NCBI GenBank assembly: GCA_016190815.1
Contig: JACPPT010000058.1
Coordinates: forward strand, 2,826-66,825
Length of the DNA: 64,000 nucleotides
Source of the DNA: Chloroflexota bacterium
GTDB taxonomy: Bacteria; Chloroflexota; Dehalococcoidia; JACPPT01
Direction of reading: 5' to 3'
The notes under the pieces were generated by a model. That model saw only the letters and a program-made list of their open reading frames with translations. It had not been told where the DNA came from and ran no database searches. Each line of letters opens with the position of its first letter. Within the stretch, counting starts at the first letter, position 1. The position numbers and the translations under genes were made by a program. This document shows positions 21,943-44,040 of this stretch, piece by piece.

Positions 21943-23331
21943 TTATAAATTTGCTTTTGCTCTTTGTTTTCTGATGTAGTTTACCAGGGCGTCTACCTGA
22001 AGGGCTGCGGTGCCGTAGTAGCCTTCTACATTCATGATTTCCTCTATTTCAGCGTCTGTGAGATATTTCGAAACCTCTTCGCTTCCTTTCAGCACCTCTG
22101 AGAAAGGCTTTCCCTCCTCGTAGCTTTTCATAGACAGGTCGTGGATCAGCCTGTGAGCTGTTACCTTCTTCCCCGTCTTTTGCCAGAGCTTCAGCATTAT
22201 CACCTCTGACATAGGTAGGCCGTTGAGTATGTACAGGTTCTGCCTCATCCTTTCGGCGTTTACCTTCAGACCACCCAGGATGTGAATAGCCCGATGGAGG
22301 CTGGCAGAGGCCAGAAGAAAGCCCTCTGGAATACAGGCGAACTGGATGGCCGTTCTGGTGGAGTCCCGCTCGTGCTGCATCTGAAGGTCCATCATGGCCA
22401 GGGCGTTGCTCCTGGCGAGCTTGGCTATGCCCTCCTGCCATTCACTGGGCTCCGGGTTTCTCTTGTGGGGCATGGTGCTGCTTCCATACTGTTTTTCCGA
22501 GTCCCACGGCTCTTCCACCTCGGCCACCTCGGTGCGCTGAAGGTCGCGAACCTCCAGTCCCACCTCGCCCAGGGTGGTGCATATCATGGCTAGATGGAAA
22601 CAAAGCTCGGCGAGGCGGTCCATCCTGTGCCCCGGGTCTATAACGGGCCTGGCGAGGCCGATCTTATCACACACCGCCTGAACAAAGGCATCCACCCTCT
22701 CAGTGCCCAGAAGGTAGGCAAAGGTGTTCTGGGTGCCTGTGGCAGCGGTGAGTTTCGCAATAAAAAGGCGTTTTTCCATCTCATGGAGCCTTTCTATATG
22801 GTCGTGAATCTCCCACGCCCATACGGCTGTCTTGAAGCCGAAGGTTATGGGCACGGCGTGCTGGCCGTGAGTTCTGCCCATCATAACCGTATGCTTGTGG
22901 CGCTCTGCCAGGTCAACGAGGATTTTCTCCAGGTCGTAGAGCTGCCGCATAATCAGGGCGTAGGCCTCTTTCATCTGGAGGGTCAGGCCTGTGTCGAAGA
23001 TGTCCTGGGTTGTGGGGCCCAGGTGGAAGTGCTCCCCTGCGGGGCCGCAAATCTTGGCGAAGGTCCTTATGAAGGATACTATGGCGTGGCCTGTCTCTGC
23101 CTTACTGCTGGCTATGGTCTCCAAAGGCAGAAACTTCATCGAGCTTTTGTTGGCGATTTCCTGAGCCGCCCACTGCGGGATGACGCCGAACTCGGCCTCG
23201 GCAAGGGCTATCGCTTTTTCGAAATCGAGCCACTTCTGTACCAGGTTCTCCTCCTCCCAAATCCTGCGCATCTCTGGGGTTCCGAAGGAGTCCCTGAACA
23301 TGAGGTATGAGTGTTTCATTTCTGCCTCCAA
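21943..23331 (-). CDS. Fumarate-lyase superfamily protein (adenylosuccinate lyase / 3-carboxymuconate cycloisomerase-like)
   Basis: Signature GSSTMPHKRNP; 462 aa. Confidence 0.75.
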   Translation of the reverse strand: MEAEMKHSYLMFRDSFGTPEMRRIWEEENLVQKWLDFEKAIALAEAEFGVIPQWAAQEIANKSSMKFLPLETIASSKAETGHAIVSFIRTFAKICGPAGEHFHLGPTTQDIFDTGLTLQMKEAYALIMRQLYDLEKILVDLAERHKHTVMMGRTHGQHAVPITFGFKTAVWAWEIHDHIERLHEMEKRLFIAKLTAATGTQNTFAYLLGTERVDAFVQAVCDKIGLARPVIDPGHRMDRLAELCFHLAMICTTLGEVGLEVRDLQRTEVAEVEEPWDSEKQYGSSTMPHKRNPEPSEWQEGIAKLARSNALAMMDLQMQHERDSTRTAIQFACIPEGFLLASASLHRAIHILGGLKVNAERMRQNLYILNGLPMSEVIMLKLWQKTGKKVTAHRLIHDLSMKSYEEGKPFSEVLKGSEEVSKYLTDAEIEEIMNVEGYYGTAALQVDALVNYIRKQRAKANL

Positions 23332-23345: not shown

Positions 23346-23792
23346 CTAAATGGCTCGGCCAATAATAATGAGAGCCAGCCCCAACACCACGAGAAAGGCA
23401 CCCAGAGCCAGTTTAGGGGTTATCCTCTCTATGCCCTGAAGGAATATGCTAGAGAGGAGCAGGGCGATGAGGGGGTATGTGTTGGCAACGGGGGAAACCG
23501 CTATGACAGGTGCCTTGGAGAGAGCAAAGAAGAAGAAGAGCAGGCCCATGGAGGAGGTGATGCCGGAGAGGGCGAAGAACGCAACGCCCCGTCTGTTGGT
23601 GCTGTTCAGCTCGAGCTTAATGCTGCGGATGTTGACCAACCAGTAAAGGAATGTCCCTGCCAAAAGGGATATGCTGGCCCCCACAAGGGGAGGCGCTACC
23701 TGAGTGACGCCCACTCTCGCGAGTATGTGGGATGTTCCGTAGGAGAAGGCGCTGGCCAAGGCTATGGCGTATCCCCAGGATGCGTCCCTCAT
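23346..23792 (-). CDS. Single-EamA-domain half transporter (DMT superfamily), second of a pair
   Basis: 148 aa from ATG 23792 (MRDASWGYAIALASAFSYG...), one EamA domain. Its ATG overlaps the upstream gene's stop as ATGA (23789-23792). Confidence 0.7.
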   Translation of the reverse strand: MRDASWGYAIALASAFSYGTSHILARVGVTQVAPPLVGASISLLAGTFLYWLVNIRSIKLELNSTNRRGVAFFALSGITSSMGLLFFFFALSKAPVIAVSPVANTYPLIALLLSSIFLQGIERITPKLALGAFLVVLGLALIIIGRAI

Positions 23793-24220
23793 TGCGCTTT
23801 CCTCCCGGTAATGATGAGGAACAGGCCGGTCAGGATGGATGCAGTGCCAATGAATATGGGTGGGGTGAGGTTCTCCTGGAGGAATATCACAGCCATGACC
23901 ATGGAGAAAAAGGGGGCGATGGAGATGATGGGTGTGGCCCTGGAAACACCTATGCGACTTATGGAGAGGTAGTTGAAGAACCTGCCCATGGGGAACGTGA
24001 AGACGCCAACCAGGGCGAACCAGAAGATGCTCCACGGCGATATGGAAAGGAGGTTCTTAAAATCGAAGACCAGGGTTAGGGCGACCACAAAGAGGATGCT
24101 GGTTATGAGGGAGATCAGGGTTCCCTCTCTTACATTCAGACGCTGAAGCGCCACTCTGGCCACCACGGCGTCAGCGCCCCAGGCCAGAGCCGCCCCCATA
24201 GCAATAAAAATACCCAACAT
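23789..24220 (-). CDS. Single-EamA-domain half transporter (DMT superfamily), first of a pair
   Basis: 143 aa, one EamA domain (MLGIFIAMGAALAWGADAVVARVAL...). Confidence 0.7.
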   Translation of the reverse strand: MLGIFIAMGAALAWGADAVVARVALQRLNVREGTLISLITSILFVVALTLVFDFKNLLSISPWSIFWFALVGVFTFPMGRFFNYLSISRIGVSRATPIISIAPFFSMVMAVIFLQENLTPPIFIGTASILTGLFLIITGRKAQ

Positions 24221-24418: not shown

Positions 24419-24865
24419 CTATCGAACCCAGGCGGTGGCCGTGCCCACGGTCACAGGCTCGCCCTTCTGGTTGACACAGGCGACATCCATCTCATAGCGC
24501 ACCGCCGAACCCACTTGCTCCTTTTTTGTTATCGTTGCTTTCATAGTGAGCACGTCGCCTGCAAAGACCAGCTTGATGTATTTGTTGAGGAGTCTTCCCC
24601 CGACAAGAAATCCTTCCCCGAAGAAATCGGTCAGCATCTCCGAGAGCCAGCAGGTGGATACCATGCCATCGGCTACGGGGGCGGGAAGCCCCTGGCTTTT
24701 GGCGTATTCGGCATCGGTGTGGATGTTTACGCCGTAGGGCGTGAACTTCCCCGCAGACACAGAGAGTATTCCATCGCCGTACTTGGTCATAAGCTCCTGA
24801 GTCATAGTTCGAGTCAGGGTGGGCAGCTCGTAGCCGACCTGGAGGTCTCTTGCGGCTTTTGCCAT
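24419..24865 (-). CDS. MaoC-like (R)-specific enoyl-CoA hydratase subunit (hot-dog fold)
   Basis: Hydratase-2 type motif YGVNIHTDAEYA; 148 aa. Confidence 0.8.
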   Translation of the reverse strand: MAKAARDLQVGYELPTLTRTMTQELMTKYGDGILSVSAGKFTPYGVNIHTDAEYAKSQGLPAPVADGMVSTCWLSEMLTDFFGEGFLVGGRLLNKYIKLVFAGDVLTMKATITKKEQVGSAVRYEMDVACVNQKGEPVTVGTATAWVR

Positions 24866-25305
24866 TATTGCCCCTCCCTTTTGTATCTAAGAAGCGTTAC
24901 GTAGTTGTAGCGCGCCACCAGGTCGCCCTTTTCATCGAAGAACTCGTAGAGGGCTGCCAGGTATGGCCTTCCCCTCTTGATGTACTTGTCGACGATTTTC
25001 CCCTTGGCTGTGATTTTTTCACCCACCTTTACAGGTTTGAAGGTCTCGACCTCGTATTGAATATGGAGAGTAGGGTTTTCGAGCTTGCCCGGGTAGGCGT
25101 GGGTCCTGAGGCGGTAGGCCAGGGCGTGGAATATGGTGGGTGAAACCACAGGCCTTCCAGAAGCAGAGCTTTTTGTGAACCATGGATTGCGGTCGCCGGA
25201 GCCATCCCCCCACCATTTCGCCATTTCAGGGGTTATGAGGATTTCCAAAGGGCCCAGTGCTTCCCCTGGCTGTGCCTCTGAATAGCTTTTCATCTGGACA
25301 GCCAT
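24865..25305 (-). CDS. MaoC N-terminal-type hot-dog fold subunit (partner of the downstream hydratase)
   Basis: 146-aa hot-dog-like sequence lacking the hydratase motif. Its stop overlaps the next ATG (TAATG at 24863-24867), as in heterodimeric hydratases. Confidence 0.65.
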   Translation of the reverse strand: MAVQMKSYSEAQPGEALGPLEILITPEMAKWWGDGSGDRNPWFTKSSASGRPVVSPTIFHALAYRLRTHAYPGKLENPTLHIQYEVETFKPVKVGEKITAKGKIVDKYIKRGRPYLAALYEFFDEKGDLVARYNYVTLLRYKREGQ

Positions 25306-25382
25306 TATATATGCCTCCTTCTTCCTCGCCAGTTTGGTTCACTAACGTCTTTTATCCCACCCGTCCACCCAGATATGTCTTT

Positions 25383-25407
25383 GGGGGGCTTCTCCCCCTG
25401 CACCCCC
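25383..25407. repeat. G/C-run repeat copy (GGGGGGCTTCTCCCCCTGCACCCCC) in the intercistronic gap
   Basis: Shares the CTGCAC(Y)CCC motif and G5/C5 runs with the elements at 37715-37797 and 43630-43843. Confidence 0.4.
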
Positions 25408-25467
25408 GTATGGCGTCCCAATAACCTGACAGAACGCTAGACGCGGGACCTGCGGGTCGGCCATACC

Positions 25468-26805
25468 TTACCCCTGATTCAGGAGATCGATGATGGGCTT
25501 AATGGAGGGGAGCGTCTCCAGGTGCTGGGTCATCTCCATAGCCTTCTTTGCAGCGTCAGCCCCCAGGGCCTTCTTCGTGTTGGAGATGAATTTCTCTCGC
25601 AGCTCCTCTTCAGTGAGGGGGTCCTCCGGGTCGCCCTTGGGCGTCTTTCTCTCGTGCTGGTAAACCTTGCCTCCTGTAGTCTCCACCCTCAGTACTATGG
25701 CATATCTTTTAGGGGCGTTTTCAAAGGAGAATTTGATGTCGAAAGCAGGGTTGTGGACCAGGGAGACCTTTTTGGCGAAGTCCAGAATTGCTTGGTCGTT
25801 GAGCCTTTTCTCGGAGACCTCCTCGGGCCCGACCTTGCCATAGACAATGGCTGCTCCCAGGAGGAATGGAATGCTATACTGGGCCTGCTCAAGGCTTCGC
25901 GGCCTCGTGCTGTTGAGCGTTGTTACCCAGTTGCGAACCTCTACTGTAACCTTGGCTATGTCCTCTTTCTTAAGTGCGTGTGCTCTTGTCAGTTCCAGGA
26001 AGCCCTCAATGGAGGTGTGTGTGGCGCGACATGCGGGATGCGGCTTGAAGTAAGAGTTGAGGATTTCCCAGGTGGAACCCAGTGTATTGAGACACGCCTT
26101 GTCGCTGCCTCCGTCATCATAGACGGTTGGGGGGCCGGTGAAGCCCCTCCTGGCCAGGAGGGCGGCCTGTACACCAATCATAGCCCCTGGCCCTATGGCC
26201 TCCTTGGTCATCGGCCCTACCTCGGCGATTCCTGTGAGCATAGACATGGGGGCGTGACACTCGGCGATGCCCAGGGCATTCGCTGTTTCGTTCTCAGAGA
26301 GGTTCAGGAGCTTCGCAACCGTCGCCGCCATGCCGTAGGCTCCGGGAGTGCCGGTTGTGTGCGTGAGGGTGGTTTTAGGCGGGGGTCTTAGGAGGTCAGC
26401 CGTTCTGAGTGTGATTTCATAGCCTGCCACCACGGCTTCTATGAGGCTTTTGCCGGAGGAGTTCACACCCTCTGCCACGGCTATGGCCCCGGGAATGACC
26501 TGCGAGGCGGGATGAACGGCGCACCAGTTACCGTCGTCGTAGTCCAGGGCGCTGGCCGCAACACTGTTGGCAAAGGCTGCCAGCATTGACGGCACTCTAG
26601 TTTTAGAGCCAAAAAGGGTGGCCTCCCCTTTTCCTGCCATCTCCTCTATTGATTCTCTTGCTATTGTCGCGGCGCTTGTTTCTACTCCCCCTACCATTAC
26701 GCCGAGGGTGTCCATAATGGTGAGCTTGGCCCGTGCCACCGCTTTGGGGGGTAGCTCCTCAAGATTTGTTTTGGCTATGAACCTGACGACATCTCTTGTA
26801 TCCAT
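25468..26805 (-). CDS. MmgE/PrpD-family protein, paralogue 1
   Basis: 445 aa. Family blocks FANSVAASALDYDDG and PMTKEAIGPG; collinear with the four neighbours. Confidence 0.85.
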   Translation of the reverse strand: MDTRDVVRFIAKTNLEELPPKAVARAKLTIMDTLGVMVGGVETSAATIARESIEEMAGKGEATLFGSKTRVPSMLAAFANSVAASALDYDDGNWCAVHPASQVIPGAIAVAEGVNSSGKSLIEAVVAGYEITLRTADLLRPPPKTTLTHTTGTPGAYGMAATVAKLLNLSENETANALGIAECHAPMSMLTGIAEVGPMTKEAIGPGAMIGVQAALLARRGFTGPPTVYDDGGSDKACLNTLGSTWEILNSYFKPHPACRATHTSIEGFLELTRAHALKKEDIAKVTVEVRNWVTTLNSTRPRSLEQAQYSIPFLLGAAIVYGKVGPEEVSEKRLNDQAILDFAKKVSLVHNPAFDIKFSFENAPKRYAIVLRVETTGGKVYQHERKTPKGDPEDPLTEEELREKFISNTKKALGADAAKKAMEMTQHLETLPSIKPIIDLLNQG

Positions 26806-26824
26806 GTCTCCTCCTTCTACAGAG

Positions 26825-28159
26825 CTATTTCCCTGGGGATGCAGCCCTCAAAAGCTCCGCAAGGCGCTCAACACCTGGCATGTCCTCCAGGTTCTGGATG
26901 GTCTCCAGAAGGCTTCTTGCCCTTCTTGTGCCCAGAGCCTTCCTTGCAGAGGAGAGGAATTTTTGCTCTATCTCCGCATTGGAGAGGGGATTTTCCACGT
27001 TTCCTTTGGCGAACTCTTTGCTCATTTCATAGTGCTTCTTATCCTTCGTCTCCACTCGAACGATATTGGGGTATCTGGCTGGATACCTGGCGTCTAGCCT
27101 TGGGTTCACCACCAACTTCACCTTTTTGGCCTGTCTCAGTATCTTTGCGTCTGCAAGCCTATCGTCCGCCATCTCTTCTGCCCCGAGCTTCCCTTCTGCC
27201 AGAACAGCACCAAGGAGGAAAGGATAGCTGTACTGGGCCTGTTCTATGGTTATGGGCCTCTTGCTGTTGAGCTTTCCTGCCCGAGTGTGGGTCTCCACAA
27301 CTACCTGTGATATGTCCTCTGAGGTCAGGGAGTGTTTCTGTATAATCTCCAGGAGAGCATCGATGGCGTTGTGGGTCAGGCGGCAGGCAGGATAGGGCTT
27401 CACATAGAAGTTCAGTGTCTCATAGGTCTTGCCCAGGGTTTCCAGCATGGACACGTCAACGTCAGGGTCGTCGAACACTGTTTTTGGTGCATAAAACCCT
27501 CTTTTTGCCAGGAGGGCGGCCGTAACGCCGGTCATAGCCCCCCAGCCGATACATTCCTTGGTCATACAGCCTGTGGTGGTGATGACCCATACTTCGGCCA
27601 GGGGTGAGTGGGTATCGGAGATTCCCAGCGCGTTGGTCATCTCTTCTCTGTTCAGGCCAAGGATTTTCCCTGCGGCCGCCGCTGCACCGTAGGCACCCCC
27701 TGCCCCCGTGGCGCGGTGTATTGGCTGTTTTTCTCTGGGGCGCCAGAGCTTATGTGCCCTTGTGGCCACCTCGTACCCAGCCACTACCGCCTCGATAAGA
27801 CCTTTGCCCGAGGCCTTCTGACTCTCGGCCATGGCCAGAGCGCCTGGAATGACTACTGCTCCTGCATGGGAGCCCACCCAGTGGCCGTCGTCCCAGTCCA
27901 GGACGCTGGCTGCTATGCTGTTAGCAAATGAAGCTGTGGGAGCAGGCACCTTGATGTGTGTTCCGAATAGGGTGGATTCCTCTACCCCTCTCATGGATGC
28001 GGCCAACTCACGGGCTATGCTTGCGGTCCTGGTCTCCAGGCCGGCTAGCATCACGCCCAGGGTATCTATTATTCCCACCTTGGCCCTGGCGACAACGCTG
28101 GCCGGCAGCTTTTGAAAGGTGGTGTTGACTGCGAAACTGGCTACACTACAAGTATCCAT
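26825..28159 (-). CDS. MmgE/PrpD-family protein, paralogue 2
   Basis: 444 aa; FANSIAASVLDWDDG, CMTKECIGWG. Confidence 0.85.
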   Translation of the reverse strand: MDTCSVASFAVNTTFQKLPASVVARAKVGIIDTLGVMLAGLETRTASIARELAASMRGVEESTLFGTHIKVPAPTASFANSIAASVLDWDDGHWVGSHAGAVVIPGALAMAESQKASGKGLIEAVVAGYEVATRAHKLWRPREKQPIHRATGAGGAYGAAAAAGKILGLNREEMTNALGISDTHSPLAEVWVITTTGCMTKECIGWGAMTGVTAALLAKRGFYAPKTVFDDPDVDVSMLETLGKTYETLNFYVKPYPACRLTHNAIDALLEIIQKHSLTSEDISQVVVETHTRAGKLNSKRPITIEQAQYSYPFLLGAVLAEGKLGAEEMADDRLADAKILRQAKKVKLVVNPRLDARYPARYPNIVRVETKDKKHYEMSKEFAKGNVENPLSNAEIEQKFLSSARKALGTRRARSLLETIQNLEDMPGVERLAELLRAASPGK

Positions 28160-28194
28160 AACATTCCTTTACATAACATAAAAATTAAATATTC

Positions 28195-29538
28195 TTATGC
28201 TGTGATGCGCAGCATTTCTGAGATGACCCCTGTTAGCTCGCTGACCCTGGGCAGGCTTTCAAGATTATCAATGGCTGCCTCCAGTTTCTTTGCCCCTGTT
28301 TCTCCCAGTTTCCTTGAGGCAAGGCTTCTGAATTTGGCCCTGAGCTCTTCCTGGGGGAGTGGATTCAGCCTGTCCCCACTGGGGTAATCCTTGCGCATCT
28401 CATACATCTTCCCCTCCCGGGTCTCTACCTTGAGAATGTTGGCAAATATCCCCTGGGGTGGAAACAGGGGGTCCAGGACAGGGTTGTTCGCCAGGGAAAC
28501 CTTATCTACCTCTCTTAAGATTGCCGGGTCAGAGAGCCTGCCATCTGCCATCTGTTCGGCACCACATCTTCCCTCGGCCAGGGCGGCCCCGAGGACAAAG
28601 GGATAACTATACTGAGCTTGCTCTATTGTTACTGGCCTCTTGCTATTAAGGAGAGTGCCCGTCTTGTGGGTCTCTACGATTACTCTTGATATATCCTTTG
28701 AGGTGAGGGAGTGCTCCTTCATAATCTCCAGAAGGATATCTACGGCCGAGTGGGTCAGCCTGCACGCTGCATAAGGCTTGAAGTAGAGGTTCATAATCTC
28801 GTAGGTTTTGCCCAGGGTTTCCAGCATCGCCCCATCGGCCTGCTGGTCTTCTAATATAGTCATGGATCCCGTGAAGCCTTTCCTTGCCAAAAGCGCTGCC
28901 AGAATCCCGGTATGACCTCCCCAGCCTATGCACTCTTTGGTCATGGGGCCTGTAGCTGGAATGACCCACGCCTCGGCTATAGGTGCATGGGCCGCAGCAA
29001 TGGAAAGGGCATTGAAAACGCCTTCCTCGTCCAGCCCGAGAATCTTAGACGCAGCCGCTGCCACTCCATAGGAGCCTGGCGCGCCGGCCCCGTGTTGAGC
29101 AGGGTGTTTGGGGGATGTGCGAAACATCCAGTTAGCCCTTATTTGCACCTCGTAGCCAGCCACCACAGCCTCGAGGAACCTCTTGCCAGTGGCGTTTTCT
29201 CGCTCGCCGATGGCCAGGGCTGCTGGAATTAGTACGGCGCCGGGGTGTCCACCCTTATGGTGGCCGTCGTCTATGTCCAGGACGCTGGCAGCAACGCAGT
29301 TGGCGAAGGCAGCAGATGCACAGGGGACCTTGAGGCCTGTCCCCCAGAGAGCGGATTCTCTCCCCTCGCCCATCTCCGCGGCTGCCTGCCTTGCTATTTG
29401 GGCCGTTTTGGTGTCCAGGCCAGCCAGGGCTGATCCAAGGACGTCCATGACGCAGGTCTTGGCCCGCAAGAGAACACCATCCGGCCATTTCTCCGCAGCG
29501 GTTTCTACAACAAAACCGGCTACCCTTCGGCTGTTCAT
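28195..29538 (-). CDS. MmgE/PrpD-family protein, paralogue 3
   Basis: 447 aa; FANCVAASVLDIDDG, KILGLDEEGVFNALSIA, ATGPMTKECIGWGG. Confidence 0.85.
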   Translation of the reverse strand: MNSRRVAGFVVETAAEKWPDGVLLRAKTCVMDVLGSALAGLDTKTAQIARQAAAEMGEGRESALWGTGLKVPCASAAFANCVAASVLDIDDGHHKGGHPGAVLIPAALAIGERENATGKRFLEAVVAGYEVQIRANWMFRTSPKHPAQHGAGAPGSYGVAAAASKILGLDEEGVFNALSIAAAHAPIAEAWVIPATGPMTKECIGWGGHTGILAALLARKGFTGSMTILEDQQADGAMLETLGKTYEIMNLYFKPYAACRLTHSAVDILLEIMKEHSLTSKDISRVIVETHKTGTLLNSKRPVTIEQAQYSYPFVLGAALAEGRCGAEQMADGRLSDPAILREVDKVSLANNPVLDPLFPPQGIFANILKVETREGKMYEMRKDYPSGDRLNPLPQEELRAKFRSLASRKLGETGAKKLEAAIDNLESLPRVSELTGVISEMLRITA

Positions 29539-29570
29539 TCTATTTCCTCCGTTCCCATTGGTTTCGGCGG

Positions 29571-30914
29571 CTAGCTTTTCAAAAGCTCAATGAGGAGGTT
29601 CACCTTTGGTAATTTCTCCAGGTGCTCCAGAGACTCGTTGATCCTCTGGGCGCTGTCCTTGCTCACACTCATCCGTTGGAGTGCACCGTCCAGCTTTGCC
29701 TTTACATCCTTTTCTGGGAGGGGGTTCCTGGGGTCCCCCCTGCCTATGTCTTTCCTTAGCTGGTATTTATTTCCGTCCTTTGTCTCCACAGTTACACTGT
29801 TGGGGTAGAGATTGGGATAGATACCGTCAAATGCTGGAACGTGGACAACAACCACCTTGTCGGCAAGTTGCAGTATTCTGGGGTCTGTGAGTCTCGAATC
29901 GGCAATTTGTTGTGGCCCTACGGCTCCTTCGAGGAGGGCTGCTGCCATACAGAAGGGATAGCTATACTGTGCCTGCTCTATAGTCGTGGGCCTTGTGCTG
30001 TTTAGCGGCGCCGCCCCCCGGTGGGTTTCCACCACAATCCTTGAGACGTTTTCCGCTTTGAGGGAGTGCTTCTTTCTTAACTCTAGAATGGCGTCAATGC
30101 CCGAGTGAGTAACCCGGCAGGCGGCGTAGGGTTTAAAGTAGGTATTTAGAATTTCATAGGTCTTGCCGAACGTTTCCAGGCAGCTCTTATCTGTCTTCTC
30201 TTCGTCATAGATGGTGAGGGAGCCGGTGAACCCTCTTCTGGCCAGGAGGGCTGAGACAACCCCTGTGAACCCGCCCCAGCCTATAGCCTCTTTGGTCATT
30301 GCTCCCGTGGTGGGCAGCTTGGAGCTATCAGACGTGGGCGCGTGGGCTCCTGCTATGCTGATGGCGTTGAATATGCCGTTCTCGTTCAGACCCAGGACCT
30401 TGGCGCATGCTGTTGCTGCACCGTAGGTTCCTGCTGCGCCTGCGCCGTGGGGAACGCGCCCCCCCGATGGGAGAGGATGATTTGGTGATGCTCGGAACAG
30501 AAGGCCTGCCCTTGTGGCAAGCTCATACCCAGCTACGACCGCTTCGAGGAGGGTTTTTCCTGGCGCTTCCGCGAACTCAGAAACGGCCAGGGCGGCTGGA
30601 ATTATAGGTGCTGCGGGATGAAGGCCTGACCTCGAGTGGCCATCGTCCCAGTCCAGGTCGCTGGCGGCGATGCTGTTAGCAAAGGCGGCGGCTGCACATG
30701 AGATTTTGTCCCTTGTTCCGAAGAGGGTGGCCTCTTTTCTGCTGCCGAACTCCTTTGCTGTTTCTCGGGCCATTTGTGCAGCGCTGGTGTCCAGGCCAGA
30801 CAGCATTGTACCGAGGACGTCCCAGACATGGAGCTTGGCCCTCTCCACGACCTCTTTGGGCAGGGTCTCCAGGCTGGTTTTGGCGGCAAAACTTGCTGCC
30901 CTATGAGTATCCAT
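29571..30914 (-). CDS. MmgE/PrpD-family protein, paralogue 4
   Basis: 447 aa; FANSIAASDLDWDDG, AMTKEAIGWGG. Confidence 0.85.
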   Translation of the reverse strand: MDTHRAASFAAKTSLETLPKEVVERAKLHVWDVLGTMLSGLDTSAAQMARETAKEFGSRKEATLFGTRDKISCAAAAFANSIAASDLDWDDGHSRSGLHPAAPIIPAALAVSEFAEAPGKTLLEAVVAGYELATRAGLLFRASPNHPLPSGGRVPHGAGAAGTYGAATACAKVLGLNENGIFNAISIAGAHAPTSDSSKLPTTGAMTKEAIGWGGFTGVVSALLARRGFTGSLTIYDEEKTDKSCLETFGKTYEILNTYFKPYAACRVTHSGIDAILELRKKHSLKAENVSRIVVETHRGAAPLNSTRPTTIEQAQYSYPFCMAAALLEGAVGPQQIADSRLTDPRILQLADKVVVVHVPAFDGIYPNLYPNSVTVETKDGNKYQLRKDIGRGDPRNPLPEKDVKAKLDGALQRMSVSKDSAQRINESLEHLEKLPKVNLLIELLKS

Positions 30915-31022
30915 GCTCCTCCTCCCCGCGAGCTCTCTTTGTCTGCTCGCTTGTGTGAATTAATAACGAGTTCAAATTTTCTTTAGCTCCGTTTGCCGCT
31001 ATGAGAGGCAAACTTCTTAGCG

Positions 31023-32387
31023 TTACCCCTTGGGAAGCGCTACCGGGGCATGTTTTTTGGTGCTCAGTATTAGCAGGTCTATGAGAGGTCCAACGTTTGT
31101 AAGCGTCTCCAGACGGTCTATACTTTTGGAAAGTATCCCTGTGCTCTCTTCGCCTATTTCATTAGTCGCTAGAGCGTAAAACTTGGCTCTAAGTTCCTCC
31201 TCGGAGAGAGGGTCTTTCACATCTCCCCTCGGTATATCCCTTCGGAGCTGGTATTTATTGCCGTCCTTTGTCTCAACCGTTACGCTGCTGGGATATTGGC
31301 CCGGGTAGAGACTGTCGAAGACAGGGTTGTGCTTGAGGACAACCTTGTCGGCCTCTCTCAAGATCTCAGGGTCAGAGAGCCTGGAGTCTTGCATCTGGCG
31401 AGGTCCTACCGCCCTTTCGGCGATGGCTGCCCCGATGACAAAGGGAAAGCTATACTGTGCCTGTTCAATGCTTACGGGTCTCCTGCTGCTGAGAAGGTTG
31501 GCCGTTTTGTGGGTTTCCACTGTAACCTTCGAGACCTTTTCCGGAGTAATTGAGTGCTTCTTTACGATTTCTAGGGCAGCGTCTATTGCAGCGTGGGTTA
31601 TTCGACACGCTGTATGGGGTTTGAAGTAGAGGTTCAGGATTTCGTAGGTCTTGCCCAGGGTTTCCAGCACGCTTCTATCGGTCTCTGTTTCATCGTAAAT
31701 AGTGAGGGAGCCCGTGAAGTGCCTTTTTGCCAGAAGGGCTGAGGCCACGCTACTGAGTCCTCCCCAGCCTATGCATTCCTTGGTCATTGGGCCGGTGGCA
31801 GTTATGATCCATGCCTCAGCTATGGGTGCATGTGCCCCAGCTATTGACAGGGCGTTGAAAACGCCTTCTTCATCAAGGCCTAAGATCTTGGCACACGCAG
31901 CCGCAGCGCCGTATGAGCCGCCTGCGCCTGAGCCATGAAGGAATGGATGTTTTGGAGAGTAGCGGAACATGTGGTTGGCTCTTATGCCAGCCTCGCAGCC
32001 AGCCACCACTGCCTCGATAAAGGTCTTCCCAGACACCTTCTCGCGCTCAGCCAGGGCCAACGCTGCGGGCACTATGACGGCGGTGGGATGAAGGCCCGAG
32101 ATGGCATGGCCGTCATCGTAGTCCAGGACGCTCGCGGCGACGCAGTTGGCGAAGGCTGCTGCTGTACATGGGGCTTTCTTGCCTGCCCCGAAAACGGTAG
32201 CTTCCTCTCTGCCACCTAGTTCCTCCAGTGCCATCTGTCGGGCGATGGTGGCCGTCTTGGTTCCAAGGCCCCCGAGCATGGTTCCAAAAACGTCCCGTAT
32301 GCAGACCTTGGCCCGGGCGACAACCTGTGGGGACAACTTCCCGAAGTTTGTCATAGCTACGAAGTTCGCTATTCTTCTTGTGGGCAT
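31023..32387 (-). CDS. MmgE/PrpD-family protein, paralogue 5
   Basis: 454 aa from ATG 32387 (MPTRRIANFVAMTNF aligns with the N-termini of the other four). The track's longer start would overlap the upstream hydratase gene. Confidence 0.85.
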   Translation of the reverse strand: MPTRRIANFVAMTNFGKLSPQVVARAKVCIRDVFGTMLGGLGTKTATIARQMALEELGGREEATVFGAGKKAPCTAAAFANCVAASVLDYDDGHAISGLHPTAVIVPAALALAEREKVSGKTFIEAVVAGCEAGIRANHMFRYSPKHPFLHGSGAGGSYGAAAACAKILGLDEEGVFNALSIAGAHAPIAEAWIITATGPMTKECIGWGGLSSVASALLAKRHFTGSLTIYDETETDRSVLETLGKTYEILNLYFKPHTACRITHAAIDAALEIVKKHSITPEKVSKVTVETHKTANLLSSRRPVSIEQAQYSFPFVIGAAIAERAVGPRQMQDSRLSDPEILREADKVVLKHNPVFDSLYPGQYPSSVTVETKDGNKYQLRRDIPRGDVKDPLSEEELRAKFYALATNEIGEESTGILSKSIDRLETLTNVGPLIDLLILSTKKHAPVALPKG

Positions 32388-32418
32388 GTTCTTCTCCTTC
32401 TTCTCTTTTAATACAGAG

Positions 32419-33189
32419 TTACCTTCCCTTAAAAACAGGCTTTCGTTTTTCGGAGAAGGCCATTGGCCCCTCCTTCGTATCCTCGGATTCATAGACTATG
32501 GCTCGCAAAGCCCAGAAGAGACGAATTGCTTGGTCAAGGGGCATGTTTGCCCCCCGAAGAGCGAGCTCCTTGGTTACCTTTACCGCCATGGGGCCGTTCT
32601 CACAGATTGCGTCTGCTATCTCCATGGCGGTGGGCATGAGCTTTGACGAAGGAACTACGCGACTCACAAGTCCTATGCGCAGAGCTTCCTTGGCGTCTAT
32701 CCTTTTGCCTGTGAGGAGGAGTTCCATGGCTGAGGCGAGGGGTATGGCTTGGACAAGCCTGAGGGCACCGTATCCGTGCAGGAGGTTCCAGCGAACCTCG
32801 GGAGCTCCGAATGAGGAGTTCTCGGAGGCTATCCGAATGTCGCAGAACGTGGCCAGTTCCAGCGCGCCTGCTAGGCAGTAGCCATTTATTGCGGCTATGA
32901 GGGGTTTTGCCACATTCAAACCCAGGTAGAACTGGTCCTGTCGCCACGGCTGCCAGAACTCATCTGGTACGTGACGGCTGTGCATCTTTTTGAGGTCGGC
33001 CCCGGCGGAGAAGGCCTTATCGCCTGCCCCTGTAACAATCCCTACGCGTATATTGGGGTCGGTGTCTATGTCGTGGAAGGCCTGGTTCAGTCCGTTGTAG
33101 ACATCCTGATCCATAGCGTTCATCACCTCCGGGCGGTTAAGGGTGATGTACGCTACGTTTCCCTTCTTCTCGTACAATACTGCGGGCAT
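32419..33189 (-). CDS. Enoyl-CoA hydratase/isomerase (crotonase) family protein
   Basis: ITLNRPEVMNAM, GAGDKAFSAGADL, INGYCLAGALELA. AAGGAGG sits 5 nt before the second ATG (33189). Confidence 0.85.
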   Translation of the reverse strand: MPAVLYEKKGNVAYITLNRPEVMNAMDQDVYNGLNQAFHDIDTDPNIRVGIVTGAGDKAFSAGADLKKMHSRHVPDEFWQPWRQDQFYLGLNVAKPLIAAINGYCLAGALELATFCDIRIASENSSFGAPEVRWNLLHGYGALRLVQAIPLASAMELLLTGKRIDAKEALRIGLVSRVVPSSKLMPTAMEIADAICENGPMAVKVTKELALRGANMPLDQAIRLFWALRAIVYESEDTKEGPMAFSEKRKPVFKGR

Positions 33190-34474
33190 CATTTCCTCCT
33201 TCAGTTTTATTAAGATTACCAGCAGGTATGGCTGCTTCGGTTCCAATAATACCACTCTGAGCAAACGACTCTATGTCCCGGGTAGGGATTCCCAGGAGCT
33301 CGCTCAGAACATACTTGTTGTGCTCTCCCAAGAGCGGAGCGGGCATCCTTATATGACAGGGCGTCCTGGAGAGCTTTACGGACACGCCATGATGGGGATA
33401 TGTCCCAACTTCAGGGTGGGTTACCTCCTCAAAAAAGCCCCTGGCCTTTATATGTGGGTCTTGGAAAAGGTCTTTACCTGTAAGGACTGCTCCAGCAGCA
33501 ACGCCAGCCTTTTGCAGGAGATTCATTACGTAGTACTTATCATGCCGGGATGTCCATTGGTTTACCTTCTCATTGAGGATGTCCTGGTTCTTGTAACGGC
33601 TGTGGGAATCGACGAAGCGGGTATCATTTATAAGCTCTGGCATGTCCATACACTTACAAAGGGCTTGCCACTCCTCATCTGAGGAGGCAGCAATGGCAAC
33701 CCATGAATCCTCGCCCGAGCATCGATAGGCTCCATGGGGTGCCATAAAAGAATGGCGGTTGCCCCCCCGCTTCGGAGCCCTTTTGTTCATCGAGTAGTCC
33801 AGGATGGCCTCCCCGATGAAGCGGGTGAGGGTTTCATACTGGGCCAGGTCTATGTGCTGGCCCTTCCCCGTCCTTTTTCTATATTCCAGGGCAGCCATGA
33901 CGGCGAAAGCGGCGTGGAAGGCTGCGACGGGGTCAGCGTAAGGTATGCCTGTTCTTGTGGGTGAGCCATCCTTGTATCCTGTGAGACTGGAAAGGCCAGA
34001 CATCGGCTCAATGTTGGCTCCGTATGCCACGTAGTCTCGGTAAGGCCCATTTGCTCCAAAGCCTGAAAGAGAGATCATGATTATGTCTGGTTTTACCTGC
34101 CTCAAGACGGCGTAGTCGAGGCCAAAGTTCTTCATGACCCTGGGGCTATAGTTTTCTATGACTACATCGCTAATTCTTACCAGGTCTTTGAATATCTTTA
34201 CGCCTTGTGGTGTGTTGAGCTCCAGGGTAACGCAGAATTTGTTCCGGTTTATATCTTGATAGAAGCCCCCGCGGTCGTAGGGCCGCTCGCCTCTTATTCC
34301 ATTTGGGAGCGCACCGAACCTTGTCTGGTCTATGTGCACCCTCGATTCTACCTTTATGACCTCGGCTCCCATATCCGCTAGAAACTGGGCAGCCAGGGGC
34401 CCGGCCCAGACCCAGGAGACATCCAGGATTCGCAGGTCTGCCAGGGGCAATTTGCTCGCCTGTTTTCTCTCCAT
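33137..34474 (-). CDS. Family III (CaiB/BaiF) CoA-transferase with C-terminal extension
   Basis: ILDVSWVWAGPLAAQFLADMGAEVIKVE N-terminus. Runs 35 aa beyond the ...GII end shared with its two paralogues and overlaps the hydratase start by 53 nt. Confidence 0.85.
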   Translation of the reverse strand: MERKQASKLPLADLRILDVSWVWAGPLAAQFLADMGAEVIKVESRVHIDQTRFGALPNGIRGERPYDRGGFYQDINRNKFCVTLELNTPQGVKIFKDLVRISDVVIENYSPRVMKNFGLDYAVLRQVKPDIIMISLSGFGANGPYRDYVAYGANIEPMSGLSSLTGYKDGSPTRTGIPYADPVAAFHAAFAVMAALEYRKRTGKGQHIDLAQYETLTRFIGEAILDYSMNKRAPKRGGNRHSFMAPHGAYRCSGEDSWVAIAASSDEEWQALCKCMDMPELINDTRFVDSHSRYKNQDILNEKVNQWTSRHDKYYVMNLLQKAGVAAGAVLTGKDLFQDPHIKARGFFEEVTHPEVGTYPHHGVSVKLSRTPCHIRMPAPLLGEHNKYVLSELLGIPTRDIESFAQSGIIGTEAAIPAGNLNKTEGGNDARSIVREEGKRSVHHP

Positions 34475-34476
34475 TT

Positions 34477-35682
34477 TTAGATAATACCCATCTCCTTTAG
34501 CTTCACCAGTTCCTTTTTGGAGTATCCCAGACGCCCGCAGTATATTTCCTCGTTGTGCTCTCCCAGAAGAGGGGCTCGCCTGAGCTCAGCAGGAGTCTCG
34601 CTCATACGGAAGGCAGCGCTGGGGTATTTCACCCTTCCTGCTTCTGGATGCTCTAGCTCAATGAAAAACTTTCTGGCGGCGAACTGTTCGTTGTTGAGAA
34701 GCTCGTCAACGCCAAGGACCGGCCCAATGGGTATCCGTCGTGTTTGAGCACCGTGAAATACCTCTTCCTTTGGCTGGCTCTTGAACCAGGGGGTCATTAT
34801 TTTCTCTAGGTCGCCCCCGTGCGCTGGAACCTTGAACCAGTCATTGAATCTGGGGTCGTCTGGGAGCTCCGGCATGCCGATGAACTCACAGAAGGAGACA
34901 AACTGGTGCTCCCGAAGGATGCTAGTGCTGATGTAGCCGTCTTTACACTCGTAGATGCCCACCAGGGGGCCGAACCTGGCATCCCGGTTGTCTGCCCGGG
35001 GCCTTATCGTGCCCTGATAGGCGTACATAAGGGCGGTGGTCTCGATAATGGCAAGGAGGGTTTCTTGTATTGAGATGTCAACATGCTGTCCAGATCCCAG
35101 CAGGTCTCGGCTGTGAAGAGCGACCAGGGTCGCGAAGGCGGCGTTGGTTCCTGCGAGGTACTGGGCCTGGGTACCCCATGCCTTTAGTGGCTCTCTGTGG
35201 GGCGACCCGAAAGTATACATTAGCCCGCCAAGGGCGTATTCCACAACCTCTGCGGCCTTGTAATCTCTGTAGGGGCCATCCTTACCAAAGTTAGATATAG
35301 AGGTCATAACCAGCTCGGGCTTCACCTTAGAAAGGGTCTCGTAGTCCAGCCGCAGGTTGGGCATAGCACTTGGCTTGAAGTTCTCAACCAGCGCATCAGT
35401 CTCTTGAAGGAGCTCGTGGAAGATCCTTCGCCCGGTTTCACTCTTGAGATTGAGAGTTATGCTCTTCTTGTTAGTGTTAAGGTAAAGGAATAGAGCGCTT
35501 TTCTCCTGGTGAGGCATGTCCCCGGGGAAGGGGCCTTTTTTGCGGGCTGGGTCGCCAGGGACTGGCCTTTCGACTTTTACCACTTCGGCCCCCAACTCTG
35601 CTAGAAGCTTGGTGCAGTAAGGGCCGGCAACGTGGTGGCTAAGGTCTAAGATATTAATGTGACTTAAAGCCTGCCCAGACAA
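34477..35682 (-). CDS. Family III (CaiB/BaiF) CoA-transferase
   Basis: ILDLSHHVAGPYCTKLLAELGAEVVKVE; 401 aa; ends ...LKEMGII. Confidence 0.85.
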   Translation of the reverse strand: MSGQALSHINILDLSHHVAGPYCTKLLAELGAEVVKVERPVPGDPARKKGPFPGDMPHQEKSALFLYLNTNKKSITLNLKSETGRRIFHELLQETDALVENFKPSAMPNLRLDYETLSKVKPELVMTSISNFGKDGPYRDYKAAEVVEYALGGLMYTFGSPHREPLKAWGTQAQYLAGTNAAFATLVALHSRDLLGSGQHVDISIQETLLAIIETTALMYAYQGTIRPRADNRDARFGPLVGIYECKDGYISTSILREHQFVSFCEFIGMPELPDDPRFNDWFKVPAHGGDLEKIMTPWFKSQPKEEVFHGAQTRRIPIGPVLGVDELLNNEQFAARKFFIELEHPEAGRVKYPSAAFRMSETPAELRRAPLLGEHNEEIYCGRLGYSKKELVKLKEMGII

Positions 35683-35778
35683 TGAGACCTCCCGCCGATA
35701 TCAAGCTATGGGGGAAATTGGCCTAAATTATAGCACAACTGTCTACTGTTGGATGGGCAACGCACTGATGACAGCTCG

Positions 35779-36594
35779 TCATCGAGAACGAGGTGCAGGT
35801 GCCTGTACTCTTTGCGTCTTCAAGGTCAGGGCAACTATAGCAGAAAGCGCAACGATGAGCACGATCAGGGAAATGACCTGCGCTTGCTGTAGCCCCAAAA
35901 GCGTGATGTCTTCTCGCCTTACGAAGGTTAGAGTGAAGCGTCCCAGAGCGTAAACTGAGGCGTAGGTCAGGAATAGAAGCCCGTCAGACTTTGGCTGTTT
36001 TCGCCAAGCCCACAGGCCAGCGAAGAGAGCCGCATCCCATAGTATCTCGTAAAGGGGATATGGGTGGGTGGGCACGCCAAAGAACTCGGGGGGTATCAGA
36101 GATCCCGGGTTAACGTAGACGAAAGCCCAGGGTAGTGAGGTGGGGCCACCATAGGCATCCCCGTTCACAATGCATCCCAGTCGCCCGATCATCTGGCCGG
36201 CTAGAATGCTCACCGCCGCTACATCCGCTGTCCGAGCAATTGGGAGACCGACCCGCCAGGCGTATATAATGCCTGTAAGCCCGCCTACAAGGATGCCTCC
36301 CCATATGGCCAGCCCCCCCTGATAGACAGCCAGGATTTGTGCCGGATTCTCTAAATAATAGCTCAGCTTGTCCACCACATGGAAAAGCCTTGCGCCTATT
36401 AGGCCGACCAGCACAGACCATATAGCGAGAGACATCATCTTGTCCTGATTAAGCCCTTTTCGCCTGGACTCGCGGAGGGCAAGCCATATGGCAACGACAA
36501 TGCCCCCCGTTACGGCCAGGGTATACCAGTGTAGGCCAAAGGGCCCTACGTGTAGTATGATGGGATCAACGTTAATGGTTATGGATCTCAGCAT
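35779..36594 (-). CDS. lgt: Prolipoprotein diacylglyceryl transferase
   Basis: 271-aa polytopic protein with GARLFHV, QGGLAIWGGILVG and the Lgt-like layout. Confidence 0.85.
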   Translation of the reverse strand: MLRSITINVDPIILHVGPFGLHWYTLAVTGGIVVAIWLALRESRRKGLNQDKMMSLAIWSVLVGLIGARLFHVVDKLSYYLENPAQILAVYQGGLAIWGGILVGGLTGIIYAWRVGLPIARTADVAAVSILAGQMIGRLGCIVNGDAYGGPTSLPWAFVYVNPGSLIPPEFFGVPTHPYPLYEILWDAALFAGLWAWRKQPKSDGLLFLTYASVYALGRFTLTFVRREDITLLGLQQAQVISLIVLIVALSAIVALTLKTQRVQAPAPRSR

Positions 36595-36770
36595 GAATTG
36601 CCTCCGATGGATAGTTCAAAAGACTAGAGCATTGCTCTTTTCTTATCAGGATGTCTTTCACATTATATAGATAACCCTGCAAAAGTAAAGCGATGTTGCT
36701 CTACTCTCGTGAAACAGCGTATTTTAGATGCTAGGCACTTGCCTTTTCTTTAGGGCATACAGCGATGTAA

Positions 36771-37580
36771 CTATTTACCTTTCCACTGAGGCGCACGCTT
36801 TTCAGCAAATGCCCTGGGGCCTTCGTCATGGTCCTCTGTCACTTCTACCTGACGTAGGTACACATGTCCTTTGGTCTCGGCTTCATCAAGAGAAAGGCCC
36901 AGTCCCCTCAATATCCCCAGCTTGGTTCCCCTCACAGCCAGAGGGGCATTACGACAGATTATCTCTGCTATCTCCGTTGCCCTGGCCATCAGGCGTTCCT
37001 GGGGCATCATCTCGCTCACCAGCCCCAGTTCATAGGCTCTTTTGGCGTCCATTCTCTCATGCACACCCATAAGGGCCATTCGCAGACAGATGCCCAGGGG
37101 GATTCGACGGCTCATCTGTATCATCTCGTGGGCTGAGACCCAGCCTATGGAGACGTGGGGGTCGAAGAAGGTGGCGTTCTCCGAGCAGATAGCGATGTCG
37201 CTTTCCGTTACGAAGTCCAGGCCGCCACCGCAGCATATCCCGTTGACAGCGGCGATGACGGGCTTGGTTACATTGTGGGTTCTGGGGCCCCAGCGATAAG
37301 GAGTTACCTCTCCCACCTTGGCTTGAATGGTGTAGTATTCTCCTCTTGCTTTTCTATCGGCGGCGTCCCTCACGTCTGCCCCGCTGCACATCGCCCTGTT
37401 TCCTGCGCCGGTTACTATTGCTACCCAGAGGTTGTCATCCTTTTCGAAGTTCTGCCATATCTCCGTAAGCTCCAGGCGCATCTTCGTGTTGAAGGCGTTC
37501 AGCCTCTCTGGGCGATTGAGGGTTATGTAGGCGATCCTCCCCTTTTTCTCATAGATGACCGTTTCGTAAGGCAATTCCAT
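36771..37580 (-). CDS. Enoyl-CoA hydratase/isomerase (crotonase) family protein
   Basis: ITLNRPERLNAF, GAGNRAMCSGADV, NGICCGGGLDF; 269 aa. Confidence 0.85.
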   Translation of the reverse strand: MELPYETVIYEKKGRIAYITLNRPERLNAFNTKMRLELTEIWQNFEKDDNLWVAIVTGAGNRAMCSGADVRDAADRKARGEYYTIQAKVGEVTPYRWGPRTHNVTKPVIAAVNGICCGGGLDFVTESDIAICSENATFFDPHVSIGWVSAHEMIQMSRRIPLGICLRMALMGVHERMDAKRAYELGLVSEMMPQERLMARATEIAEIICRNAPLAVRGTKLGILRGLGLSLDEAETKGHVYLRQVEVTEDHDEGPRAFAEKRAPQWKGK

Positions 37581-40240: not shown

Positions 40241-40288
40241 AGAAAAGCTTATCGCCCGTGTTACGAAGGCATTCTGTGCTCATGTGTC

Positions 40289-41614: not shown

Positions 41615-41658
41615 TAGACTACAAGCTGTCCCAGCTTACTTTGGAATCATCTTCAGCC

Positions 41659-43293: not shown

Positions 43294-43629
43294 CCTTCAC
43301 CTCCTGAGAACCTGTAGCGTTGTCCGATTTTGATAAGCGGTTCCCTTGCCTTTGACTCGCCTCACCATTTTACCGCCCTCGCCTCTCGGCTTTACGGCAA
43401 ATGGTATCAGAAAAGCCTCACAAGTCAAACTGCAACCCGCATTGAAAGGCAGTCCAGTCACCCCCTCTGGATTCCCACGATGACTCCGAAGCATCCGTAC
43501 GCTGATTTACATAAACAAGTTCTAGGTAGGGCAAAGGCTATAGCGGATAGGATGATAGAATATTTGTGCAGCCCCCGTCCTAAAACTAGCAATTGACCTG
43601 TAAGTGGCTGTGACACAGACTACTGAACA

Positions 43630-43843: not shown

Positions 43844-44040
43844 GCAGGGGATGAGGTATCAGATCACTCCAGGGGTGAATCATAGGGGAAACCCAGTGAG
43901 CATGAACCCAACCAGCATCATACGGGTGAAGCTGGGTAAAGCTGAATCACTGATTTCGGGCCCATACACCGTATTGCCCGTTCCAGGTTCCTGTGCTATA
44001 ATCCAGACGTCTCCATTACAGTCAAGATATATGGTGTTAG

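Follow-up and report, generated by a model that had tools for sequence, protein, structure and literature searches.

MmgE/PrpD-family enzymes are found in about one fifth of prokaryotic species, and only five activities of the family are known; their substrates all share a 1,4-dicarboxylate backbone, and a common enolate mechanism is likely (PMC12290011). Gonner et al. (2025) identified the MmgE/PrpD gene of an itaconate cluster as encoding an (S)-(R)-methylsuccinate isomerase (Msi), which uses the free acid only and feeds the stereoselective family-III CoA-transferase Ict, beside a MaoC hydratase (PMC12290011). Msi genes are "always" found beside the gene for (RS)-methylsuccinyl-CoA dehydrogenase, and 96% come from Pseudomonadota (PMC12290011). 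In cis-aconitate decarboxylase (CAD, also IRG1), activity requires Asp93, Thr97, His103, His159, Lys207, Lys272, His277 and Tyr318, and the characterised members of the family are dimers (PMC6789909). Here we describe a gene cluster with five consecutive MmgE/PrpD genes in a Chloroflexota metagenome-assembled genome (MAG). The DNA analysed is a 64,000-nucleotide stretch of the 79-kb contig JACPPT010000058.1 (assembly GCA_016190815.1, positions 2,826 to 66,825), referred to below as the window; proteins MBI2847112-15 are on record for this MAG. Our literature search found no paper describing MmgE/PrpD tandem expansions.

The interval 24419-35682 of the window contains ten open reading frames (ORFs), all on the minus strand, and not the eleven-gene operon announced by an earlier reading of the same DNA made without database searches (the sequence-only reading). 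In transcription order, the cluster begins with two family-III CoA-transferases, CoAT1 (34477-35682; 401 aa, TTG start preceded by a GGGAGG Shine-Dalgarno; Pfam CoA_transf_3 E 2.6e-102) and CoAT2 (33137-34474; 445 aa; CoA_transf_3 E 1.7e-120), and a crotonase-family enoyl-CoA hydratase/isomerase (32419-33192; 256-257 aa; ECH_1 E 1.2e-62). The five MmgE/PrpD copies follow: PrpD_A (31023-32387, 454 aa), PrpD_B (29571-30914, 447 aa), PrpD_C (28195-29538, 447 aa), PrpD_D (26825-28159, 444 aa) and PrpD_E (25468-26805, 445 aa), the last being the most divergent. Two hot-dog subunits end the cluster, HD1 of MaoC-N type (24865-25305, 146 aa) and HD2 of MaoC type (24419-24865, 148 aa; Pfam MaoC_dehydratas E 5.7e-9). 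The nine gaps, in the same order, are 2, -56, 31, 108, 32, 35, 19, 162 and -1 nt. Apart from the gene count, the outline that had been drawn from the letters holds: five consecutive full-length copies of 444-454 aa lie 19-108 nt apart on one strand, with two adjacent CoA-transferases and a crotonase upstream.

As in the Msi cluster of Pseudomonas and Cupriavidus, MmgE/PrpD-fold enzymes have a family-III CoA-transferase and a MaoC-type hydratase as genomic neighbours here. Conserved residues include the catalytic His and the two Lys that stabilise the enolate, and a free dicarboxylate would likewise be isomerised for a stereoselective CoA-transferase. Compared with the published description of Msi, there are five genes here instead of one, the host belongs to the Chloroflexota and not to the Pseudomonadota, and neither an acyl-CoA dehydrogenase nor a citramalyl-CoA lyase lies adjacent; the equivalent of Msi Tyr148 is not conserved and that of His88 is Ser.

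Age and active site of the array

The five copies share 45-60% of their amino acids in all pairwise comparisons and 53-63% of their nucleotides. At codons for conserved residues, third-position identity between copies is 0.46-0.56, so that synonymous sites are saturated. PrpD_A and PrpD_C, the fifth and third copies in plus-strand order, do have the long identical runs in common that had been noticed in the sequence, KILGLDEEGVFNALSIA and ATGPMTKECIGWGG, and the blocks FAN(S/C)(I/V)AAS.LD.DDG and MTKE(A/C)IG(W/P)G are likewise found in the copies. Third-position identity is no higher inside the two A/C runs (7/17 and 8/14), which reflects purifying selection without gene conversion; conversion is ruled out by the nucleotide divergence together with the saturated synonymous sites. 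Nowhere does nucleotide identity between two copies exceed 81% in a 90-nt window. None of the five reading frames is interrupted, and a separate Shine-Dalgarno precedes each. An independent Logan assembly of SRR12113390 is 99.98% identical to the window over 28166-37190; copies A, B and C appear there in the same order, together with the upstream genes. The array is therefore an ancient, genuine and lineage-specific tandem expansion of co-oriented, tightly spaced genes, and the view of it as a diverged paralogue array stands.

End to end, all five copies match both domains of the family, MmgE_PrpD_N (PF03972; E 1e-50 to 2e-55; 170-188 bits) and MmgE_PrpD_C (PF19305; E 1e-34 to 3e-39; 120-135 bits), at a Pfam gathering cut-off of 32.1 bits. 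Against the NCBIfam PrpD equivalogs TIGR02330, NF006943 and NF042438, they reach only 18-46 bits, compared with cut-offs of 458, 575 and 950. Among proteins of solved structure, iminodisuccinate (IDS) epimerase is the nearest in sequence (E 2e-29), and CAD comes next. An AlphaFold2 model of PrpD_A (mean predicted local distance difference test score, pLDDT, 95.4) gave template-modelling (TM) scores of 0.84-0.85 to CAD and IDS epimerase in Foldseek, compared with 0.69-0.78 to true PrpD/MmgE, at probability 1.00.

The active sites were compared in an alignment of the five copies with IDS epimerase, mouse CAD and E. coli PrpD, using IDS numbering. D88, D91, H99, E131, K198 and K266 are invariant across all five copies. 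H150 (His159 in CAD) is retained by every copy except PrpD_D, which has Arg in this column and a His one residue earlier. The position of IDS H85 is occupied by Ser in all five copies, and the column of Tyr145 by Lys or Asn, in a variable loop where the alignment is uncertain. CAD residues Thr97, His277 and Tyr318 are replaced by Gly, Cys and Phe in every copy. A subfamily signature, K-P-[YH]-x-A-C-R-x-T-H, is invariant; IDS epimerase has the same Cys (C271), and every member of the clade has Arg after this Cys. Tyr312 (PrpD_A numbering) is also invariant in the subfamily. Variation between copies is concentrated in loops 93-99, 141-150 and 186-199, which flank catalytic residues. In PrpD_B, loop 141-150 carries a 6-residue insertion before the His150 equivalent, and the insertion recurs in its sister protein P0004. 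An invariant core with variable loops implies that the enolate-forming machinery (Asp-x-x-Asp, His and two Lys) is intact and that the surroundings of the pocket have diversified.

With IDS epimerase (PDB 2HP0/2HP3), which gives the top solved sequence match and the highest TM score (0.85), the copies share D88, H99, H150, K198, K266 and Cys271. They differ from it in overall sequence (about 24% identity), in Ser for His85, in the absence of Tyr145, in the Arg after the Cys, and in that no C-N lyase partner was identified. CAD (PDB 6R6T/6R6U) has the top Foldseek E-value and a TM score of 0.84; Asp93, His103, Lys207 and Lys272 are kept throughout and His159 by four of the copies, whereas the three replaced residues are all required in CAD. 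With 2-methylcitrate dehydratase (PrpD/MmgE) the copies share the Pfam superfamily and overall fold, but the TM scores are lower, there is no prp operon here, and E. coli PrpD differs at several active-site columns. By sequence comparison, the copies are thus shown to form a distinct, uncharacterised MmgE/PrpD subfamily that is CAD/IDS-epimerase-like and not 2-methylcitrate dehydratase. Two-base epimerisation could be compatible with these residues, as could one-base isomerisation, elimination or decarboxylation. The dehydratase/decarboxylase chemistry proposed in the sequence-only reading is not favoured, given the low PrpD scores, the altered CAD residues and the nearness of IDS epimerase.

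Flanking CoA genes and a proposed role

Among solved structures, CoAT1 matches chain A of benzylsuccinate CoA-transferase (9fn0_A, 178 bits), SUGCT (174 bits) and 9fn0_B (144 bits), and CoAT2 matches 9fn0_B (237 bits, ~34% identity), SUGCT (222 bits) and 9fn0_A (97 bits). CoAT1 with chain A and CoAT2 with chain B are thus reciprocal best matches, at low identity and with narrow margins. The two proteins are 33.5% identical to each other, and CoAT1 scores far under the cut-offs of all NCBIfam equivalogs. CoAT2 is probably the second subunit of a heteromeric dicarboxylate CoA-transferase with CoAT1. Such an enzyme is plausible because only 2 nt separate the genes, and because a JGI metagenome contig (L140, 382-9606) encodes a 751-aa fused double CoA_transf_3 protein between two PrpD-like genes. 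The order of two adjacent family-III CoA-transferase genes and then a crotonase is also that of benzylsuccinate beta-oxidation (BbsEF and BbsH), whose substrate class is 2-substituted succinates. Unlike the bbs module, the cluster has no BbsG dehydrogenase, BbsCD dehydrogenase (SDR) or BbsAB thiolase, and Bbs lacks MmgE/PrpD. The best NCBIfam and PDB matches of the crotonase are generic (EchA19, 3-hydroxypropionyl-CoA dehydratase) and fall under the equivalog cut-offs.

The downstream hot-dog genes overlap by one base, giving the TAATG coupling that had been described. The accompanying assignment as a MaoC-N-type subunit and a subunit with the hydratase-2 motif fared less well. HD1 matches FAS1_DH_region (formerly MaoC-N) below threshold (E 9e-4; 19.8 vs 22 bits), although its NCBI name is MaoC N-terminal domain protein, and its motif GDRNPWF keeps the Asp and has Phe for His. 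In HD2 the motif is degenerate: ...GVNIH... keeps the His, and in an alignment with PDB 1q6w the position of the catalytic Asp is otherwise occupied after a short insertion. The hydratase catalytic dyad appears split across HD1 (Asp) and HD2 (His). The pair may correspond to a heteromeric hydratase of the HadAB/ChsH1-ChsH2 type, in which an N-type subunit joins a catalytic subunit with the Asp-x4-His motif; of this motif HD2 has the His and lacks the Asp. HD1 is 31% identical to the PF13452 partner, and HD2 32% identical to the MaoC partner, of a hot-dog pair on another PrpD-bearing contig (L002). A word-indexed search for homologues of HD1 returned HD1 itself only, and PDB matches of HD1 to OspA were discarded as spurious and low-complexity.

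We tentatively read the five copies as a substrate- and stereo-diversified isomerising battery for free substituted C4-dicarboxylates, placed ahead of a selective CoA-transferase in the route, a reading that in our judgement falls just short of probable. The five enzymes would be cofactor-free and would act on free acids with a succinate (C4-dicarboxylate) backbone, each copy being tuned to a different substituent or stereoisomer. A proton would be removed and returned at C2, resulting in epimerisation or isomerisation, or possibly in beta-elimination, and the product would be the form accepted by a regio- and stereoselective, succinyl-CoA-dependent CoA-transferase, probably heteromeric. The CoA esters would then pass to the crotonase and the MaoC pair, two hydratases from families whose stereospecificity is typically opposite, with dehydrogenation and C-C cleavage encoded elsewhere. 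Overall, this would be the logic of methylsuccinate isomerase, Ict and Ich, five-fold. The substrates being free acids, the type of chemistry, the coupling to the CoA-transferase and co-transcription are all points that we infer. The dicarboxylate part is supported by the best solved matches of the CoA-transferases, benzylsuccinate CoA-transferase and SUGCT, all of which are dicarboxylate enzymes. A free-acid MmgE/PrpD enzyme feeding a CoA-transferase/MaoC route, as had been envisaged for this locus, has a published precedent in Msi and Ict (PMC12290011).

Several observations weigh against this reading. The copies lack the second base of the two known epimerases (Tyr145 in IDS epimerase, Tyr148 in Msi) at the corresponding position and have Ser for the carboxylate ligand His85, so that the chemistry could differ from that of known epimerases. 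The CoA-transferases are only ~34% identical to BbsF and their lead over SUGCT is slim (237 vs 222 and 178 vs 174 bits), and HD2 is without the canonical catalytic Asp. The cluster contains no acyl-CoA dehydrogenase, lyase or thiolase, which leaves the route after CoA transfer incomplete; an acyl-CoA dehydrogenase domain was found in no scanned ORF of the window, and HMGL-like genes are present at distances of 26 kb and 33 kb. The CoA-transferase and the MaoC-type hydratase of the itaconate cluster (Ict-Ich-Ccl) have counterparts here, the MaoC pair being non-canonical, but the window cluster has no lyase, and the itaconate/mesaconate-type C5-dicarboxylate route suggested earlier does not hold as a complete pathway. 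Most relatives have no CoA genes nearby and stand instead with aminotransferases and RidA, with MttB, OpuAC and CN-hydrolase, with a glycyl-radical eliminase, or with creatinase and amidohydrolase, so adjacency in the window may not mean a common pathway. Finally, a two-hexamer promoter and terminator scan of the cluster region gave matches at chance level only, and co-transcription is therefore putative.

A broader proposition, which we consider rather unlikely, is that tandem batteries of five to nine cofactor-independent MmgE/PrpD enzymes constitute an unrecognised strategy of subsurface Chloroflexota for "normalising" mixed substituted succinate- and aspartate-type acids, and that a new catalytic variant is marked by the clade-invariant Cys-Arg pair and by the missing His85 and Tyr145. 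The acids might be, for example, racemised or fumarate-addition-derived aquifer products, consumed by the CoA-transferase here and by aminotransferases in another MAG described below. The catalytic variant might use a His/Cys or His/Tyr312 two-base mechanism, and CoA-ester substrates might even be allowed. Lineage-specific multiplication of one catabolic family, read as widening the range of refractory or chiral substrates, is also seen in the expansions of SAR202 and other Chloroflexota (enolase superfamily, FMNO); those involve other enzyme families, whereas the array described here is strictly tandem and comes from groundwater. The SAR202 paralogue-expansion papers that we found do not mention MmgE/PrpD. 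What is at stake is one uncharacterised subfamily that has been repeatedly multiplied in groundwater Chloroflexota and joined to different downstream enzymes. If the copies are specialised isomerases, the known reaction space of the fold grows; slow-growing subsurface bacteria would have an enzymatic means of coping with chirally and structurally mixed dicarboxylic acids, and the array would provide a set of stereoselective, cofactor-free biocatalysts.

Relatives and rival explanations

Scans for relatives gave 79 GTDB loci and 80 metagenome loci, and a bootstrapped neighbour-joining tree was built. The window copies group with P0004, P0003 and P0007 and are separate from E. coli PrpD, mouse CAD and IDS epimerase, so that the feared clustering as orthodox PrpD with identical active sites was not seen. 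The sister of PrpD_B is P0004 (MBI2847322; 100% bootstrap, 69% identity) and that of PrpD_C is P0003 (78% identity), while P0007 (MBI2846737) lies near PrpD_D. Both P0004 and P0007 are encoded on other contigs of the same MAG, which therefore holds at least two further paralogues of the clade. PrpD_E groups with a Desulfobacterales protein and P0009 (82% bootstrap).

A second Chloroflexota MAG from the same groundwater project, Chloroflexi bacterium NC_groundwater_1435 (65% GC), has nine tandem copies on JACQUK010000118.1 (L006, 489-13031; also L011 and partly L007). These are 443-453 aa long, lie on the same strand, share 50-71% identity with one another and are monophyletic at 100% bootstrap, so that this expansion arose independently of the five-copy array; paralogue expansion of the kind to which the locus had been compared is thus a real phenomenon. 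Seven of the nine copies have lost the His150 equivalent. Whole-operon synteny with the window cluster was found in none of the 79 GTDB and 80 metagenome loci. Copy numbers in the relatives are 1, 2, 3, 5 or 9, single copies being by far the commonest, and L002, L003, L081, L122 and L140 hold small arrays of two or three.

The gene contexts of the relatives bear on an alternative that we hold to be improbable, namely that the array is unrelated to the flanking CoA genes and acts on nitrogen-containing acids (N-substituted aspartates, amino- or imino-dicarboxylates), two catabolic modules having been juxtaposed. Its starting point is that the closest solved sequence is that of iminodisuccinate epimerase. 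Downstream of the nine-copy array are two class-III aminotransferases, two PNPOx-like genes, a 384-aa RidA-like gene, FrhB and POR. The L002 contig carries DHDPS and two aminotransferases as well as its hot-dog pair (PF13452 and MaoC), 5 kb from the PrpD pair, and L003 has creatinase and amidohydrolase near its PrpD-like genes. A conserved cluster of Desulfobacterales, seen in L013 (4369-12290) and in some 30 further loci (L015-L084), combines a single PrpD-like gene with an MttB-family methyltransferase, a CN-hydrolase and a glycine-betaine-type ABC transporter (OpuAC, permease, ATPase), which suggests a role in catabolism of quaternary amines or amino-acid derivatives. On plasmid pHV4 of Haloferax volcanii DS2 (585347-588090; L170, 7001-9744), a tandem MmgE/PrpD pair with 30% mutual identity lies between an amino-acid-type ABC transporter, which it follows, and an IclR regulator. 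Both genes of this pair have the K...[AS]CR signature (ACR/SCR), and they offer a genetically tractable entry point to the subfamily.

A family-III CoA-transferase adjoins PrpD-like genes in only a handful of about 165 related loci (L090, L140, L076, L078 and, as a fragment, L002). Linkage to CoA genes thus does not extend to most relatives, which have nitrogen-compound or other contexts. The adjacency does recur, however, in L140 and in L090, the closest metagenomic relative, where a 404-aa CoAT1-like gene immediately precedes a PrpD-like gene of 47% identity. In the window itself the array is flanked on both sides by CoA-ester enzymes on the same strand, across gaps of 31 and 162 nt; the cluster contains no aminotransferase, oxidase or C-N lyase, and the Lyase_1 gene further downstream passes the purB cut-off and is probably housekeeping. 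Judging from gene neighbourhoods, the common denominator of all these contexts is an accessory position beside a selective downstream enzyme.

P0009, the PrpD_E-like protein, is encoded between an 810-aa glycyl-radical enzyme and a radical-SAM activase (L088, 264-5051; Logan SRR14699983). This would be an uncharacterised three-gene glycyl-radical-enzyme module. The glycyl-radical enzyme is of the eliminase class (HypD/CutC/sulfopropanediol dehydratase-like) and under all equivalog cut-offs; a link to fumarate addition, with this neighbour as an X-succinate synthase, is thereby ruled out. The PrpD-like pair of L002 (ERZ26167216) and the triple of L003 (ERZ26166691) are on ENA long-read contigs with many transposase genes around them, and one L002 copy has Pro at the position of the catalytic His99 and may be decaying. 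In L081 a Lyase_1 gene follows two PrpD-like genes. A tblastn search of plasmids returned unannotated relatives only, at 30-35% identity, many of the plasmids having two places per record.

Copy number is also central to a second alternative, that the five proteins form an obligate hetero-oligomeric enzyme, which was raised in the sequence-only reading and which we regard as quite improbable. Characterised family members are dimers (PMC6789909), tandem pairs are frequent (H. volcanii pHV4, L002, L081, L122 and many plasmids), and the altered His150 of PrpD_D and the His lost from several copies of the nine-copy array could mark non-catalytic partners. Such a complex nevertheless fits poorly with relatives that have anything from one to nine copies and mostly one, with P0004 and P0007 dispersed on other contigs of the MAG, and with independent expansions in two MAGs; moreover, the full catalytic core is present in all five copies and none resembles a scaffold subunit. 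The spread of copy numbers and the monophyly of the nine-copy array argue for diversification rather than a fixed complex.

It is very improbable that the copies are an orthodox 2-methylcitrate dehydratase, CAD or Msi that has merely been amplified. The source annotation does label many relatives "2-methylcitrate dehydratase PrpD", and the catalytic His and both Lys are conserved. As 2-methylcitrate dehydratases the copies are excluded by PrpD equivalog scores far under the cut-offs of 458-950 bits and by the lack of prpB/prpC, no methylisocitrate lyase or methylcitrate synthase domains of these types being found among the scanned ORFs of the 64-kb window. As CAD they are excluded since only five of the eight required residues are kept (Asp93, His103, His159, Lys207 and Lys272), and as Msi by the lack of an acyl-CoA dehydrogenase in the window, when Msi always stands beside methylsuccinyl-CoA dehydrogenase, by the unconserved Tyr and by the different phylum; their place in the tree, apart from all three reference proteins, agrees. 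That the array is an artefact of assembly or binning (a collapsed or chimeric repeat) is next to impossible: the sequence does come from a MAG and the independent Logan contig terminates right after copy C, but that contig reproduces three copies and the upstream genes over 9 kb, the frames are intact with their own Shine-Dalgarnos, and the copies are too different to mis-assemble.

Transcription features and neighbouring genes

We infer that the ten genes form a single operon from their spacing and strand. A GGAGG-type Shine-Dalgarno precedes nearly every gene of the cluster. A possible extended -10 promoter element, TGcTATAAT, lies at 35727-35732 on the minus strand, in the 96-nt gap upstream of CoAT1, as read from the letters. 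GC-rich inverted repeats are present in the two longer gaps within the cluster, GTTTGCC...GGCAAAC and GCGAGC...GCTCGC in 30915-31022 and GGGGG..CCCCCC in 25306-25467, none with a T-run after it; they might serve for processing or attenuation. The 162-nt gap before HD1 holds only ORFs of at most 40 aa, all trivial, and Rfam and tRNA scans gave no hits. CoAT2 has a C-terminal tail of ~35 residues past the CoA-transferase domain, overlapping the crotonase start by ~56 nt (33137-33192), so that the boundary assigned to one of these genes may be wrong.

Two half-size EamA (DMT) transporter genes (23789-24220 and 23346-23792, minus strand; 143 and 148 aa, one EamA domain each) begin 198 nt downstream of HD2 and are coupled by an ATGA stop/start overlap. 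EamA genes also adjoin PrpD-like genes in L012 and L091. The pair may serve substrate transport, and its membership of the cluster is uncertain. An adenylosuccinate-lyase-family (Lyase_1) gene follows at 21943-23331 on the minus strand. It was considered as an IDS-type C-N lyase partner and set aside, as it passes the purB equivalog cut-off (348 vs 326 bits); it scores equally well against the model of XcbD (3-sulfopropionylcysteine synthase).

Two further CoA-centred modules are present at 49442-59475. The minus-strand module comprises a solute-binding protein, an HMGL-like lyase, a third family-III CoA-transferase and an SDR, and the plus-strand module DUF4387, an AtuA-family protein, an AMP-dependent ligase and a 470-aa HMGL-like protein. 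These modules could be the source of the lyase steps missing from the PrpD cluster. The regions 38024-47286 and 60751-62996 encode a DMSO-reductase-family molybdoenzyme, a sarcosine-oxidase-like FAD enzyme and a TfrA-like fumarate-reductase flavoprotein, together with a 1081-aa STAND/TPR/BTAD regulator and a C5 cytosine methylase with a NOV_C-domain protein.

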